64,000 bases of DNA, taken from the IMG/VR virus record IMGVR_UViG_3300033463_000102; one strand, written 5' to 3'. Each line of letters begins with the position of its first letter. Within the stretch, counting starts at the first letter, position 1. This document shows, in pieces, positions 24,391-59,148 of this stretch. Origin of the DNA: an uncultured virus (IMG/VR IMGVR_UViG_3300033463_000102) (taxonomy: Duplodnaviria; Heunggongvirae; Uroviricota; Caudoviricetes). The translations under genes and the position numbers were made by a program. The notes below the pieces were generated by a model. It saw nothing but the letters and a program-made list of their open reading frames with translations, searched no databases and was not told the DNA's origin.

Positions 24391-25128
24391 ATGAGCAATG
24401 AAACAACAAATCTCGGTCTTACCCTCGACGCTGAAACCCTCGCTGCTTTCGAAAGCGGTGAAAGCGTTTCCAAGTTCCTTCTTGAAGAAGGTGTCTACGA
24501 CGCTGTCGTGCGTGGCTATGTCATTAAGCCACATGTGTTCGAAGGCGATGACCACGGCCCGAAAATCCAGCTTATCTGGCAGTTGGCAGACGGAGAAGGC
24601 ATGGTTCACACCCTTCTCGGTAAGCGTTGGAAGATGTCGGCAGACGAACGTTCCGTGTTCCGCAAGGAAGTGTCCAAATGGTTCAACAAGACCGATTGGC
24701 CGACAATCGTGGACATCTTGAAGAAAGGTGGTATCCTCGTGGCTGATGCCGAAGGCGCCCACTTCGAAATCGACAAGTTCATCGGAAAGAAGGCCAAGCT
24801 TATGGTCAACCAGGTCACGTCAAAGAAGGGGAAGACCTTCAATGACATCGTCAGCATCTCTCCTGCGTCAAAGACTCCAAAGGCTGTTGCCAATGACGAT
24901 GTGCCAGCATGGATGCTCGAAGGCGCACTCGACTATAAACTTGGCGAAGGCATCGGCATCCGTGCCAAGGAAGAGGGCGAAGCATCTGCCGAACAGCCGA
25001 AGGCAAACACTGCATCTAATGCTGCTCCCCCTGCATTGCCGAAGGGTTCCCCTGCCAAGAAGCAGTTGATGGAACAGGCCGCAGAAGCAAATGCCACTGG
25101 CTTTGCCGATGACGACTTGCCGTTCTGA
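24391..25128 (+). CDS. ssb: Single-stranded DNA-binding protein (probable)
   Basis: OB-fold-like N-terminus, flexible linker, acidic DDDLPF tail; homolog 57440-58165. Confidence 0.75.
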   Translation: MSNETTNLGLTLDAETLAAFESGESVSKFLLEEGVYDAVVRGYVIKPHVFEGDDHGPKIQLIWQLADGEGMVHTLLGKRWKMSADERSVFRKEVSKWFNKTDWPTIVDILKKGGILVADAEGAHFEIDKFIGKKAKLMVNQVTSKKGKTFNDIVSISPASKTPKAVANDDVPAWMLEGALDYKLGEGIGIRAKEEGEASAEQPKANTASNAAPPALPKGSPAKKQLMEQAAEANATGFADDDLPF

Positions 25129-25204: not shown

Positions 25205-25299
25205 AGGGCCTAGTTTGGGCTTGGCTTCGGCGGGGGACTCTATTGGGACCGAAAGGCTTCATAAGGGTATTTTGCTGGGGCGAGTTCAGGCTGGGTCTT
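25205..25299 (+). ncRNA. Long G-U-rich hairpin capped by a GAAA tetraloop
   Basis: AGGGCCTAGTTTGGGCTTG pairs with CGAGTTCAGGCTGGGTCTT; stem extends inward. Confidence 0.7.
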
Positions 25300-25352
25300 G
25301 ATGGGGGCGGTGGTTTTTTCTAGGCTATCATTTACTCCGCCACCCCCTTCAA

Positions 25353-25503
25353 GGCTCAGTTAGCTCAGCTGGTAGAGCACGTTACGTTCCCCGTTCGCCT
25401 TTTTCTCCTAGCTCCCAAATTCTACATGGGATATGGTTGCGATAGAATGGGTTACTTTGGCTTGATAATCCCGATGTCGTGGGTTCGATTCCCACACTGG
25501 GCC
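25353..25503 (+). ncRNA. tRNA-like RNA with a 77-nt structured insertion in the anticodon arm (residual GAT loop)
   Basis: 8-bp acceptor GGCTCAGT/ACTGGGCC, D arm GCTC-AGCTGGTA-GAGC, T arm GTGGG-TTCGATT-CCCAC; homolog at 57301-57430. Confidence 0.85.
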
Positions 25504-25556
25504 CTATTTAATTATTGACAAAGAACAGCATCGCAACAGATGCTTGGGAGTAAAGA

Positions 25557-55719: not shown

Positions 55720-56167
55720 TCTTTGCCTCCGTCGGTTCTGCCGAAGTAGAGGCCTTCACACTCAATCCCTTGTTCTTCTGGGCCCACCTTTCGCTATCCC
55801 TGCGTTCAAGAATCTGCAGGTATCTGAGGGCCCTCTTGTTGTCAGGGTTAAGCAACAGTTCCTTTGTCAGAAGCTGTCGCAACAGGAGCACTTTCTCCTC
55901 ATAGTAGACAGCAGGAACCTTGTCGATGATAGTTCCTGCGGGAGCCCAGTGGAAAGCCACCTTGGCCCAATCAGAAACATTGTCGCATGACAGAAGTGCA
56001 ATGGTCAACTCTACGTTCGACTGGGGACAAACTAGACGATTAGCGCCTTCCGTGATAGTAGTGGAAAGCGTGACGTGCTTATAATTCATTTCAAGCCAAC
56101 TCGTTAGAGTCGAGCCTGGATGTTCGGTGGCGAGTTGTGCCGCCTTCTTTTTTCCCAATCTTTTCAT
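55670..56167 (-). CDS. terS: Terminase small subunit (probable)
   Basis: Overlaps the TerL start; ILERR..W motif; late motif 6 nt upstream of the ATG. Confidence 0.55.
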   Translation of the reverse strand: MKRLGKKKAAQLATEHPGSTLTSWLEMNYKHVTLSTTITEGANRLVCPQSNVELTIALLSCDNVSDWAKVAFHWAPAGTIIDKVPAVYYEEKVLLLRQLLTKELLLNPDNKRALRYLQILERRDSERWAQKNKGLSVKASTSAEPTEAKNGSKEIKLEFEIVGGN

Positions 56168-56182
56168 ACTATAAATAAGTAG

Positions 56183-56205
56183 AGCCGCCCATCGTGGGCG
56201 GCCTT
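56183..56205 (-). terminator. Hairpin GCCGCCCA-TCG-TGGGCGGC
   Basis: 8-bp GC stem between the early and late blocks. Confidence 0.5.
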
Positions 56206-56207
56206 GC

Positions 56208-56414
56208 TTACCGAGCCTTGCGCTGTCTTGCGTACATCGTATCGAAAGGGTTTCCGTTCGGATTCTTTCGGGGGATTTCCTCGACAACCCTTGGTGGGTC
56301 ATCAGTAACCTGCATTGCCGACTCGGGCGCCTTGTCAATCTGGTCAGGCGGAGTCTGCAAGTCCAAAGGGTCGGTTTTCTTTACTGTCTTTTTCTTGGTC
56401 GGTTGCTTAATCAT
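56208..56414 (-). CDS. Small basic hypothetical protein
   Basis: AGGAG RBS. Confidence 0.5.
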   Translation of the reverse strand: MIKQPTKKKTVKKTDPLDLQTPPDQIDKAPESAMQVTDDPPRVVEEIPRKNPNGNPFDTMYARQRKAR

Positions 56415-56589
56415 GGCTTTCTCCTTGTGGAATTTTGCCTGCTGCGGCATCTAACTCACAGCACACACATTTCTGAGATGTTATTGACGACTTGTCGAGA
56501 TAATATAACCCTACGCAAAGAATAAGGGCTAGCATAATTACGATACCCCAAAGAGCTGCTGCAATCGATTCATTGGATTCCGTTTTCAT
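56407..56589 (-). CDS. Small single-TM protein
   Basis: ALWGIVIMLALILCVGLYYL. Confidence 0.5.
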   Translation of the reverse strand: MKTESNESIAAALWGIVIMLALILCVGLYYLDKSSITSQKCVCCELDAAAGKIPQGESHD

Positions 56590-57010
56590 CGTCGTCCTCC
56601 ACATATGCAGTAACCGAAATGACTTTCTTAAATTCCAGCTCATTTCCCGCCTGCCGTATTAGCTTTAATACAGTCGGCTGGACAAGGTGAGTATGAAGTT
56701 CATCCAAGTCCTTGGTCGCAAAATTCATTTCTCCGATTTGGATGTTGTAGACGTGATTTTCTCCATTCTTAGTCTTTACCGTCATGACTACCTTAAACGG
56801 ACCATCTATATCGCATTGCTTTTTGTTCAGGTATTCCGTCATTGCTTCTGCGGGAGCCTCGCAATAGTAAGTCGTGGTAAGCTCCTGCCCTTCAAGAGGA
56901 ACTCTAGTACACCAAGACTTATAGCCTTCATGATGCTTGGGATTCTCCGCAACCAGCAAATTAGGGGCCCACCAAAAAGCCTTATCTACTGTAATTTCTG
57001 ATGATTTCAT
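56570..57010 (-). CDS. Hypothetical protein
   Basis: AGGAG RBS; positional counterpart of 25557-26074. Confidence 0.6.
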   Translation of the reverse strand: MKSSEITVDKAFWWAPNLLVAENPKHHEGYKSWCTRVPLEGQELTTTYYCEAPAEAMTEYLNKKQCDIDGPFKVVMTVKTKNGENHVYNIQIGEMNFATKDLDELHTHLVQPTVLKLIRQAGNELEFKKVISVTAYVEDDDENGIQ

Positions 57011-57024
57011 AACTACTCCTATCT

Positions 57025-57056
57025 GGAAAGAAAGCCCACGGGTTCCCCCGTGGGCC
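57025..57056 (-). terminator. Intrinsic terminator closing B's ncRNA cluster
   Basis: GCCCACGGG-GGAA-CCCGTGGGC-TTTCTTT. Confidence 0.75.
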
Positions 57057-57087
57057 CTTGATGAGTTAGCTTGACTTTTTAGAGTAA

Positions 57088-57230
57088 CAACCCGCATGGG
57101 CCTAGTTTATCCTTTTTTTCCTTCCATGCAAGTTGTTGACCCTAGTGGACAGATGGGTGAAACTGATAGCACACATTTGTTGAAGAAAACCCCATCTGCC
57201 CGCTAGGGCCCAGCCCGAAGGCTGAACCCA
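57088..57230 (-). ncRNA. Three tandem hairpins (UUCG hairpin, GCTATCA-loop hairpin, purine/GGA-loop hairpin)
   Basis: GGGTTCAGCC-TTCG-GGCTGGGCCC; GGGCAGATGGG/CCCATCTGTCC; CAACTTGCATGG/CCATGCGGGTTG. Confidence 0.65.
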
Positions 57231-57234
57231 CAAC

Positions 57235-57295
57235 AGGTAGGTTAACATGAACAATAAGTAGCCTGTCTATTTTAAGCCAGTCAGGCAAGTTGGCT
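57235..57295 (-). ncRNA. H-type pseudoknot plus anti-RBS tail
   Basis: P1 AGCCA/TGGCT, P2 GCCTG/CAGGC, loop AAATAGA shared with A. Confidence 0.75.
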
Positions 57296-57300
57296 GTTAG

Positions 57301-57430
57301 GTGTGATGGCAGGGTTCGAACCTACAACATCGGGATTACAAATCCTAAGTAACCCGCCCTGTCGCAACCATTTCAGGAGAAAAGGCGGACGGGTAACATT
57401 CCGTGCTCTACCAGTTGAGCTACATCACAC
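57301..57430 (-). ncRNA. tRNA-like RNA with a 56-nt structured insertion in the anticodon arm (residual TGT loop)
   Basis: 8-bp acceptor GTGTGATG/CATCACAC, D arm GCTC-AACTGGTA-GAGC, T arm GTAGG-TTCGAAC-CCTGC. Confidence 0.85.
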
Positions 57431-57439
57431 TTTTAATAA

Positions 57440-58165
57440 CTAGAACGGGAGGTCCGAGTCTTCGAAGCTAGTAGCACTCGTTGCTGCAGCCTGTTCCATC
57501 AATTGCTTCTTGGCAGTGGAGCCCTTCGGCAATGCCGGGGGAGCAGTCTTTGCCTTCTGCTGTTCTTCGGCAGGTTCGGAAGACTCTTCCTTTGCACGGA
57601 TGCCGATGCCATCAGCCAACTTATAGTCAAGGGCTTCTGAAAGCATCCATTCAGGAATATCGTCGATACCGACTTCCTTTGCAGTCTTTGAAGCAGGAGA
57701 GATGCTTACGATGTCATTGAAGGTCTTTCCTTTCTTGGAAGTGACCTGATTGACCATAAGGCGACCCTTCTTGCCGATGAACTTGCTGACATCGAAATGG
57801 GCACCGTTTTCGTCAGTGACGAGAAGTCCGCCCTTTTTCAGGATATCAACGATGGTCGGCCAATCCGTCTTGTTGAACCACTTGGAAATTTCCTTGCGGA
57901 ACACCGAGCGTTCATCAGCACAAATCTTCCAGCGCTTGCCGAGAAGACTATGCACGAGGCCTTCGCTGTCTGCGAGCTGCCAAATGAGCTGGATTTTCGG
58001 GCCATGGTCATCGCCTTCGAACACATGGGGCTTGATGACATAGCCACGGACGACTGCATCATAGACTCCTTCTTCGAGCAGGAACTTGGATGTGGTTTCC
58101 CCGCTTTCGAATGCTGCGAGTTCTTCTTCATTGAGGTCTAGTCCGAGATTGATTTCGTTACTCAT
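57440..58165 (-). CDS. ssb: Single-stranded DNA-binding protein (probable)
   Basis: Close homolog of 24391-25128; DSDLPF tail. Confidence 0.75.
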   Translation of the reverse strand: MSNEINLGLDLNEEELAAFESGETTSKFLLEEGVYDAVVRGYVIKPHVFEGDDHGPKIQLIWQLADSEGLVHSLLGKRWKICADERSVFRKEISKWFNKTDWPTIVDILKKGGLLVTDENGAHFDVSKFIGKKGRLMVNQVTSKKGKTFNDIVSISPASKTAKEVGIDDIPEWMLSEALDYKLADGIGIRAKEESSEPAEEQQKAKTAPPALPKGSTAKKQLMEQAAATSATSFEDSDLPF

Positions 58166-58246
58166 ATTATTACTCCTATTGAGATTGTTAGCACCAGCAC
58201 GGTGGATTTCTGTGACGGGACGTGCCCCTTTCAAGTCTGTACCTAT

Positions 58247-58275
58247 AGTTTAGCATTTTTATCTTCGACTGTCAA
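58247..58275 (-). promoter_or_regulatory. Sigma70-type promoter TTGACA-17-TAAACT
   Basis: Conserved with 24284-24312. Confidence 0.75.
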
Positions 58276-58308
58276 GAGTTTTTTATAAAAAAGCATGTTA
58301 TTTTTTCT

Positions 58309-59148
58309 TTACATTAGTCTTGCAGCCATTCGCATGAATTCGTCTATGAAATCTGCCTCTACAGATTGAGCCAACCTTTCCACGCACATGAAGTCAAGTC
58401 CATGCCTTTTCAGGTAGGTAAGGATTTCGAACGATGTCCTGTTGCGTTCACCCTCGTGCATTTCACCGAGAGCCTTTTCGGCCCATCGGAGCATCCTTTC
58501 TTCCTCTTCCTTTTCTGTGACAGGATTGCCGTATTTCTTGTTGAACTCGGCGGCGGCATGCTGGAAGTCGATTTCATTGTGGCCCCGTTCACGCTCGGCT
58601 TCAACCTTGTTCCAGTCAATTGAATATTTTGTCCCCTTGTTGTAGGCCCAACGATACGGCGACTTGGGTTCCCTTATGATGGGAATGAGCTGACAGTGGC
58701 CACGGTCGAAACAGGAAGGGTCACAGCCCCATTCGTTGACCATCGCCTTCTTGAAGTAGTAGTCCTGCAAGTCACAGTCCAACGGCTTGTCGAGCGGAAG
58801 GATTACACGGAAGCGGTCATGGTCTCCCTTGTAGGTATGGCTATGGCTCGTGTACAACGCATAGGACAGGCCCTTGTGGTCTGCTATCCATTCATCGACA
58901 GAGCACGAGGAATCATAGTCTATCTGCAAGAAGTAAAGGCTTGCAAGGTTTGCCCCGATATACTGGGCCTGCATAGTCACTGGATTGAGCACAGGATTGG
59001 CCACGAGCGTTCCGTAGATGCCAAGGGGAGCCTCTTCCTTGTTCGGGCATACAAATGGCTTCTTGATGAGTTCAAGCCACTTCTCTGCCGTAGGGCGCCA
59101 GTGCCACAGGCTTTTATCATAGAAGTGTTTTCTGATGAGGATATCCAT
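58309..59148 (-). CDS. Primase-polymerase (AEP/PrimPol-like)
   Basis: Close homolog of 23411-24250, both 279 aa. Confidence 0.8.
   Translation of the reverse strand: MDILIRKHFYDKSLWHWRPTAEKWLELIKKPFVCPNKEEAPLGIYGTLVANPVLNPVTMQAQYIGANLASLYFLQIDYDSSCSVDEWIADHKGLSYALYTSHSHTYKGDHDRFRVILPLDKPLDCDLQDYYFKKAMVNEWGCDPSCFDRGHCQLIPIIREPKSPYRWAYNKGTKYSIDWNKVEAERERGHNEIDFQHAAAEFNKKYGNPVTEKEEEERMLRWAEKALGEMHEGERNRTSFEILTYLKRHGLDFMCVERLAQSVEADFIDEFMRMAARLM

Follow-up and report, generated by a model that had tools for sequence, protein, structure and literature searches.

tRNA-shaped, Y-RNA-like genes in an uncultured phage: probable permuted relatives of YrlA with a Ro60-type arm in the anticodon stem

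Introduction

Bacterial Y RNAs are "inside-out" tRNA mimics, and both their origin and their effector function are debated as open questions. The window analysed in this study, a stretch of 64,000 nucleotides from an uncultured tailed virus (Caudoviricetes; IMG/VR record IMGVR_UViG_3300033463_000102), contains two elements, A and B, in which a tRNA-like frame is interrupted by an insert within the anticodon stem. The question raised by this locus is what kind of RNA such an interrupted frame encodes. An initial annotation, made from the letters of the sequence, had regarded it as a tRNA scaffold presenting an antisense loop to a host mRNA, with an anticodon-nuclease decoy and a very small intron as alternatives. 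Here, the structure of the two elements, their relatives and their genomic surroundings were examined, and the arm inserted in the anticodon stem was compared with that of known Y RNAs.

Results

Structure of elements A and B

The features of both elements are collected in Table 1. The sequence at the two sites was as the initial annotation had described it with respect to the arms, the insertion point and the insert sizes (77 and 56 nt). Both elements have a 7-bp acceptor stem that is extended by a G:C pair between positions -1 and 73, a D arm and a T arm, and their D and T loops are of the bacterial type. In both, the insert follows C27-G28 and thus separates position 28 from position 29 in the anticodon stem. 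The anticodon stem of B has 5 bp without a mismatch and that of A has one C.T mismatch at 31:39; the loops are 7 nt long, with U33 and a purine at position 37. CCA is not encoded in either element, and C73 is followed by CTA. The extra hairpin TCCCA/TGGGA described for A was also present. When each sequence was folded singly by minimum free energy, the frame was recovered with z values of -1.23 for A and -2.73 for B; these folding energies are not striking, and hence the support for the structure is comparative.

Table 1. Positions of the features in the window and assignment of family members by anticodon loop.
Feature	Position	Strand	Remark
Element A	25353..25503	+	tRNA-shaped Y-RNA-like gene, positions -1 to 73; Ile-type GAT loop
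A, 5' part	25354..25381	+	acceptor 5' strand, positions 8-9, D arm, 26 and 27-28
A, acceptor 5' strand	25354-25360	+	
A, D arm	25363-25378	+	
A, anticodon-stem pairs 27-28	25380-25381	+	CG
A, insert	25382..25458	+	77 nt; Ro60-binding-type arm; layout as in rsr-adjacent YrlA RNAs
A, insert linker	25382-25389	+	
A, insert P1 5' strand	25390-25396	+	CCCGTTC
A, insert internal-loop strand	25397-25406	+	GCCTTTTTCT
A, insert P2	25407-25408	+	CC
A, insert cap	25409-25434	+	with extra hairpin
A, insert P2	25435-25436	+	GG
A, insert Ro60-type motif strand	25437-25444	+	TTGCGATA
A, insert P1 3' strand	25445-25451	+	GAATGGG
A, insert 3' end	25452-25458	+	TTACTT+T
A, 3' part	25459..25503	+	anticodon hairpin, 42-43 (CG), variable loop, T arm, acceptor, C73
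A, anticodon hairpin	25459-25471	+	GGC-TTGATAA-TCC; C31.T39 mismatch
A, T arm	25479-25495	+	
A, acceptor 3' strand	25496-25502	+	followed by C73
Element B	57301..57430	-	tRNA-shaped Y-RNA-like gene; Thr-type TGT anticodon loop
B, insert	57346..57401	-	56 nt
B, insert linker	57394-57401	-	
B, insert P1	57387-57393	-	CCCGTCC
B, insert internal-loop strand	57378-57386	-	GCCTTTTCT
B, insert P2	57376-57377	-	CC
B, insert cap	57370-57375	-	TGAAAT
B, insert P2	57368-57369	-	GG
B, insert motif strand	57360-57367	-	TTGCGACA
B, insert P1	57353-57359	-	GGGCGGG
B, insert 3' end	57346-57352	-	TTACTT+A
B, 3' part	57301..57345	-	anticodon hairpin, 42-43 (CG), variable loop, T arm, acceptor, C73
B, anticodon hairpin	57333-57345	-	GGA-TTTGTAA-TCC
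B, T arm	57309-57325	-	
B, acceptor 3' strand	57302-57308	-	
SSB-like gene	24391..25128	+	directly upstream of A; C-terminal ...DDDLPF
SSB-like homologue	57440-58234	-	directly upstream of B
Ile-GAT members			A, its relatives L067 and L068, also L028, L058
Thr-TGT members			B, L065
Thr-GGT member			L011
Asn-GTT members			L014, L030, L045, L050, L057
Cys-GCA members			L030, L045, L050, L057

The 74-nt core that had been reported to remain without the insert was reproduced: ARAGORN called the insert-free A as tRNA-Ile(gat) and the insert-free B as tRNA-Thr(tgt). With the insert in place, the elements were missed by standard annotation, as had been stated. ARAGORN found 0 tRNA genes in the whole window, and the Rfam tRNA model (RF00005) detected B only, which reached the threshold with 42.7 bits by skipping a 67-nt insertion; in A the T arm alone was matched, below the threshold. 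A collection of isolated phages gave matches to the tRNA halves only (1 record for A and 51 for B), and the insert was uncovered in all of them.

Relatives of A and B

Relatives were gathered by pattern scans of viral, metagenome and genome collections. Most members were obtained with patterns demanding GCGANAG...GGGTTACTT, so that the conservation of this block is partly by construction; TTACTT was kept also in members collected by other routes, namely L011 (found via its 5' half), degenerate copies (via Rfam and the covariance model) and cellular loci (via TROVE). Four pattern hits (L008, L015, L017 and L019) fell in coding DNA and were discarded as fortuitous.

A covariance model, R1, was built from 15 members, a check that the initial annotation had proposed. 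In the window R1 found A (136 bits) and B (135 bits) only. In all, it found 23 insert-bearing members from 15 sources (the window and 14 loci) with E values up to 1e-10, and ordinary tRNAs scored 50 bits or less. The same insert was present at the same site in tRNA frames with differing anticodon loops (Table 1). In the family alignment (A4), which was fitted to our own structure, 93.5% of 703 cells were paired, compared with 78.8% in shuffles, and both-sided changes were observed at 21 pairs, which was equalled in 0 of 500 shuffles; in controls with slid partners the pairing fell to 31-50%. The D stem and the T stem were each 100% paired and the acceptor was 93% paired with all of its pairs covarying, and covariation was also observed in the D stem and in the 27-28/42-43 pairs. 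The covarying insert stem noted earlier from A and B (CCCGTTC/GAATGGG and CCCGTCC/GGGCGGG) was real, being 94% paired in the 23 members with compensatory changes at 4 of 7 pairs. The 8-bp acceptor stem claimed at the same time holds for A and B but not for the family: the eighth pair, -1:73, is formed in only 13 of 22 members and is accordingly no family feature.

The family was found to be a mosaic. L011 and L014 have the same acceptor and different anticodons, and in one phage near-identical inserts (93%) are carried on two different tRNA bodies. Between B and the member B2, identity was 91% in the insert and 100% in the anticodon hairpin but 31% in the acceptor, a pattern opposite to the one predicted from aminoacylation identity. 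As judged from these sequence comparisons, the constraint is on the arm and the anticodon hairpin, and not on the acceptor.

Two further observations were made on individual members. On a 2.7-kb metagenome contig, two members are arranged in tandem (L053:284-408 and L053:488-610, minus strand); after removal of the insert in silico, ARAGORN assigned the anticodon tca (UGA-reading type) to the second, and by eye the anticodon loop of the first is shortened to 5 nt. Very often the letters after position 73 are CTAA, not CCA, as in the window (25504-25507 and 57297-57300) and in L030, L045, L046 and L058, and this could be a shared 3'-processing signal.

Architecture of the insert

Member by member, the insert was laid out in one order: P1, an internal loop, a CC(C)/GG(G) helix, a cap, UUACUU and the anticodon hairpin. 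P1 is a 7-bp stem of CCYGUYC with GRRYGGG, the internal loop has GCYUUUU(U)CU on its 5' side and UKGCGAYA on its 3' side, and the closing CC/GG helix has 2-3 bp. The cap varies freely and is GCAA, ACAA, GAAA, UGAAAU or, in A, a whole extra hairpin. After P1, an invariant UUACUU plus 0-1 nt leads into the anticodon hairpin. RNAalifold, run without an imposed structure, also paired CC with GG, the C-G pairs being formed in 21 and 19 of the 23 sequences. Another inner pairing, GCC/GGU, was 87.5% paired with no compensatory change and was superseded by CC/GG.

The two loop segments that the initial annotation had described as conserved are indeed conserved, but they are not free, since their CC and GG pair with each other and the remainder forms the two sides of the internal loop. 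The second of these segments, ATGGTTGCGA, comprises the GG of the closing helix and then the GCGA motif strand; it holds the G(N)CGA-type motif that is the mark of the Ro60-binding strand in bacterial Y RNAs. In members F, D2 and H, pyrimidine-rich sequence of another kind stands in place of the GCCTTTTTCTCC run. Small ribozyme, K-turn and C/D-box readings of the insert were rejected, as no Rfam match was obtained and paired GA motifs were absent on inspection.

Correspondence with YrlA-type Y RNAs

The initial annotation did not recognise the element as a described family. The arm, however, proved to be homologous to the long stem of YrlA-type Y RNAs adjoining Ro60 genes, and the parts of the insert match the Ro60-binding stem of YrlA in Paenibacillus, GC-rich phages, Bacteroidaceae and jumbo phages. 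Against the Rfam YrlA model (RF02553), A gave a weak match of 12.8 bits (E 7.2) in which its D arm and the 5' half of its insert were aligned with the D arm and the 3' strand of YrlA. This score is below the gathering score of 69 bits, and B gave no match to the model, a result that would be expected if the strands are permuted.

A conserved Y RNA motif, GNCGAAN0-1G, lies on the 5' strand and is related to the Ro60 contact site, according to Chen et al. (2014; PMC4201824). The motif in A and B (UUGCGAYAG) and in the other members (GGCGAYAG) is one position off this published form, and the same variant, GGCGACAG, occurs in the rsr-adjacent YrlA of Paenibacillus. The gene order at the latter locus is a WYL regulator, YrlA (an Rfam full-model match, 34 bits), Rsr (TROVE and Ro60 vWA) and RlaP. 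The Paenibacillus YrlA has the standard topology, and its 5' strand is the G(N)CGAYAG-N3-GGG-UUACUU block, read in order as the terminal helix ...GG, CGACAG, GAAGGG and UUACUU. Its 3' strand consists of CCUUUCC, GACUCCUUUU and the CC... of the terminal helix, and mirrors CCCGUUC-GCCUUUUUCU-CC of the insert. At the level of sequence, the Paenibacillus YrlA corresponds in every part to the insert of A and B, except that its terminal helix is open instead of capped. The same locus (L051:5311-6108, plus strand; L051:1993-3321, minus strand), with rsr, an RlaP-family nucleotidyltransferase and a divergent WYL/WCX regulator, is an RNA-repair-type operon, with no rtcB in the stretch examined.

Modules bearing the block were also observed in GC-rich phage contigs, where TROVE ORFs (65 and 57 bits) follow directly downstream. 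They gave sub-threshold scores of 26-39 bits with Rfam YrlA and are ordered as T arm, local closed hairpin and D arm, which is the permuted YrlA topology. A script parse of 10 loci of YrlA topology yielded 11 modules from 8 loci, and none from L070 and L071. In all 11 modules, the 7-mer before UUACUU pairs at 6-7 of 7 positions with the 7-mer past the module's own D arm, with covariation, and a pyrimidine-rich loop strand of ~10 nt and then the terminal helix follow. For 6 of the 8 parsed loci, an adjoining TROVE gene was demonstrated; TROVE at L043 and L044 was read by eye in the downstream sequence, and L056 lay outside the check. The closed-acceptor Y RNA modules carry 7-nt anticodon-like loops (CGT, CCG, TTT, TGT and TGG), and hence the anticodon hairpin belongs to this Y RNA subclass. 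Furthermore, two cellular rsr loci of Bacteroidaceae, which were found through TROVE and thus independently of the DNA patterns, have YrlA-like RNAs upstream (35.5 and 34 bits) with the arrangement UGCCGUAG-stem-UUACUU.

Ro60 genes and genomic context

In the jumbo phages G006 and G007, open-acceptor members are located in tRNA arrays less than 4 kb from a phage TROVE gene on the same strand. Phage records of 419 kb and 174 kb with Asn- and Cys-type members have a same-strand TROVE protein gene 3-4 kb downstream, and on contig G010 a member is also within ~4 kb of a same-strand Ro60 (TROVE) gene. Immediately upstream of the jumbo-phage TROVE gene there are two degenerate copies in which the anticodon loop is degenerate or missing, and the same array with its TROVE gene was observed on a Bacteroidaceae MAG contig. 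Weak R1 matches (~26-27 bits) between two degenerate copies upstream of the Ro60 gene (L047:615-737 and L046:612-734, plus strand), which on L047 occupies 934-2280, suggest a longer array of Y-like modules. Separately, in the tRNA array of the jumbo phages, an unusually long tRNA-Cys(gca) call of 86 nt was obtained at L045:3831-3916 and L050:5160-5245 (plus strand) besides the interrupted Cys-type copy.

Among the 65 ORFs of the window, compared with PHROGs (all 65) and with Pfam (60 of 65), there was no TROVE protein, RNA ligase or splicing endonuclease, and no TROVE was found in G001, G008 or the complete 33-kb G009. Ro60 was present in 3 of 121 genomes of one bacterial family sampled, one of the three being a phage-bearing contig; with Ro60 being rare in the sampled family, a host partner is not assured. 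The host search gave no match for the window terminase in 401 Bacteroidales genomes and likewise none in 50,697 phage records.

In two related rumen phages, A and B have equivalent locations, immediately 3' of SSB-like and primase-like genes, and the genes downstream are unrelated. By tblastn, the two SSB-like genes are 75-79% identical and the primase-like genes further upstream 87%. The gene upstream of A is regarded as SSB-like on account of its C-terminal tail; it had no Pfam or PHROG match. The two parts of the window, 1-31000 and 31000-64000, have paired P22-like portals, large terminases and Hc3-like connectors, and the primase-like genes (87% identical) and glycosyltransferase/DUF4422 pairs are doubled as well. 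This gives the impression that the window consists of two related phage genomes lying next to each other, or that two have been joined in it.

Directly upstream of A, a GC-rich inverted repeat, GGGGGCGGTGG ... CCGCCACCCCC, was seen at 25298-25347 on the plus strand (10 of 11 pairs by eye). A part of this flank, CTAGGC..ATC..TTTACTC, is conserved in the A-like L067 and L068 and could serve as a promoter or in processing. Sigma-70 promoter and terminator scans at both loci gave nothing above shuffles. Positions 56000-59000 were compared with bovine-gut data from three metatranscriptome runs and one DNA run; the RNA contigs came from 90-95% relatives, and none of them extended over 57313-57413.

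Discussion

On the evidence above, A and B are probably phage-encoded Y RNAs in true tRNA topology, with a Ro60-type arm in the anticodon stem. Their sequences are best read as those of a circularly permuted relative of YrlA. The view of the initial annotation that the element is not an ordinary decoding tRNA gene is upheld to this extent, as a tRNA frame with what appears to be a conserved functional arm. A tRNA-like body, with an acceptor, a D arm, a T arm and an intact anticodon hairpin, would thus bear a hairpin version of the stem by which YrlA binds Ro60 (Rsr). By analogy with the YrlA of Mycobacterium smegmatis, the ends of the transcript may be matured as in a tRNA, with RNase P cleavage, 3' trimming and the addition of CCA. 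The arm would be retained and would bind Ro60. The Ro60 partner is expected to be the phage's own protein in jumbo phages and the host Ro60 for the small phages of the window. The tRNA-like half, with its isoacceptor-type anticodon loop, would be the effector end, which could tether or gate the Ro60-exonuclease machinery or alternatively compete for tRNA-binding enzymes, for example anticodon nucleases.

A further-reaching version of this proposal, which we put forward as a doubtful but conceivable one, is that the elements are the un-permuted counterpart of YrlA, arisen from tRNA genes with a Ro60-binding hairpin captured in the anticodon stem, and that their copies serve as isoacceptor-specific baits tethered to Ro60. 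Tandem duplication and truncation would then have led from such tRNA genes to YrlA, or in the opposite direction. The baits, being chargeable or CCA-ended, might intercept or report an anticodon-nuclease attack on Ile, Thr, Asn and Cys tRNAs, and might be used even by phages bringing no Ro60 of their own.

Among the other explanations, the one preferred by the initial annotation, a tRNA scaffold displaying an anti-Shine-Dalgarno antisense loop against the ribosome-binding region of a host mRNA, has become very improbable. The pyrimidine-rich run UUUUUCUCC is conserved in A, B, C, D, E and G, and its GCYUUUUUCU part is predicted to be unpaired; however, CUCC has its CC paired to GG in 19-21 of 23 members, as RNAalifold found independently, and the second loop segment is the Ro60-motif strand. 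With CUCC base-paired and ATGGTTGCGA carrying a Ro60-type motif, the antisense model is not supported. In addition, GCCTTTTTCTCC is not universal, the loop sequence being different in F, D2 and H, an equivalent pyrimidine-rich strand is found in rsr-adjacent YrlA RNAs, and the sole match in the window to the proposed target sequence is the element itself. The two alternatives offered along with it, the intron and the decoy, are possible secondary readings. As an intron, the insert would be small and of a new kind, and joining of the halves would give a functional tRNA-Ile from A and tRNA-Thr from B. Removal of the insert in silico indeed gave stable ARAGORN calls of normal length (Ile, Thr, Asn and Cys) in 16 of 23 members, the others being 5'-truncated (1) or unstable or degenerate (6). 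The anticodon loops keep U33 and purine 37 and are 100% conserved between close relatives, the occurrence of inserts with 93% identity in two tRNA bodies of one phage is mobile-intron-like, and in the jumbo-phage stretches examined the sole Asn call of ARAGORN overlaps the interrupted gene. We nevertheless regard this explanation as quite unlikely, because the insert is homologous to Y RNA stems, which are not introns, no Rfam intron or ribozyme family was matched at E up to 10, and the ORFs of the window lack an RNA ligase and a splicing endonuclease. The same anticodon-like hairpins are present on closed-acceptor Y RNAs, several of which were shown to lie beside rsr, and the copies nearest to phage rsr have no usable anticodon loop. 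The acceptor stems, normally the home of identity elements, drift, as the 31% identity of B and B2 illustrates. To our knowledge, moreover, 28/29 in the anticodon stem is not an intron site in bacteria, and we know of no bacterial mechanism for such an insert.

The remaining explanation dispenses with Ro60: the anticodon hairpin on its tRNA body would soak up or block an anticodon nuclease or another tRNA-targeting defence, and the arm would merely bar entry into translation or stabilise the RNA. The strict conservation of isoacceptor-type anticodon loops on drifting acceptors would suit such a decoy, as would the small phages without Ro60 and the rarity of Ro60 in the sampled bacterial family, and Hughes et al. 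(2020; PMC7790460) raise the possibility that YrlA's tRNA-like domain is a competitive inhibitor of an anticodon nuclease. It leaves unexplained, however, the exact Y RNA layout with UUACUU and GCGAYA invariant across phyla and the clustering of members at phage rsr genes, and no nuclease or defence context was identified. We therefore consider a decoy acting without Ro60 unlikely.

If A and B are Y RNAs in true tRNA topology, as proposed above, a natural right-way-round form would directly bridge tRNAs and Y RNAs in evolution. The combination of a free acceptor, an intact isoacceptor-type anticodon hairpin and an arm on a side branch points to a functional importance of the anticodon end. That small phages without Ro60 carry such RNAs would imply a manipulation of host Ro60 or of host tRNA-directed enzymes. 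Because they are missed by ARAGORN and fall under the Rfam YrlA cut-off, RNAs of this kind are probably under-annotated in phage tRNA arrays. A survey of jumbo phages reports TROVE proteins with a tRNA-like partner (PMC7824862). In a 2026 preprint on tRNA mimics, YrlA is mentioned in passing only, and for a paper on a phage Ro60 structure (PMC12135203) the search terms matched in the reference list only. A full-text literature search found no Y RNA in tRNA topology; reviews were incompletely covered by it and may describe related topologies.

Finally, the elements are compared with known systems. Like intron-containing tRNA genes (bacterial group I in the anticodon loop, archaeal bulge-helix-bulge at non-canonical sites), A and B have a structured insert, the removal of which restores a cloverleaf. 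The insert is, however, far smaller than a group I intron, at 56-77 nt, and is located in the stem at 28/29 instead of in the anticodon loop; a bulge-helix-bulge (3-nt bulges and a 4-bp helix) was not seen by eye at the junctions. With YrlA (RF02553; PMC4201824), A and B share a D arm, T arm and acceptor-type helix of tRNA-like form. They also share a long stem that starts from the anticodon-stem position and has a 7-bp helix and an asymmetric internal loop, in which a motif of the G(N)CGA type faces a pyrimidine-rich strand, and they have UUACUU beside the tRNA-like core. They differ from YrlA in scoring far under the Rfam cut-off, in the lack of a Ro60 gene in the phages of the window, and in having an intact anticodon hairpin of 3 bp and 7 nt that branches beside the arm. 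Furthermore, YrlA ends in the long stem and its acceptor hairpin is closed, whereas A and B combine an acceptor that is open with a long stem closed off by a cap. The nearest precedent for an open acceptor is the Ro60-bound YrlA of M. smegmatis, which, according to Chen et al. (2014; PMC4201824), ends up with free, CCA-tailed acceptor ends. There the open tRNA-like acceptor is produced by cleavage of the closed hairpin, leaving two pieces of RNA; in A and B the gene itself specifies the open acceptor, and the RNA would remain undivided.
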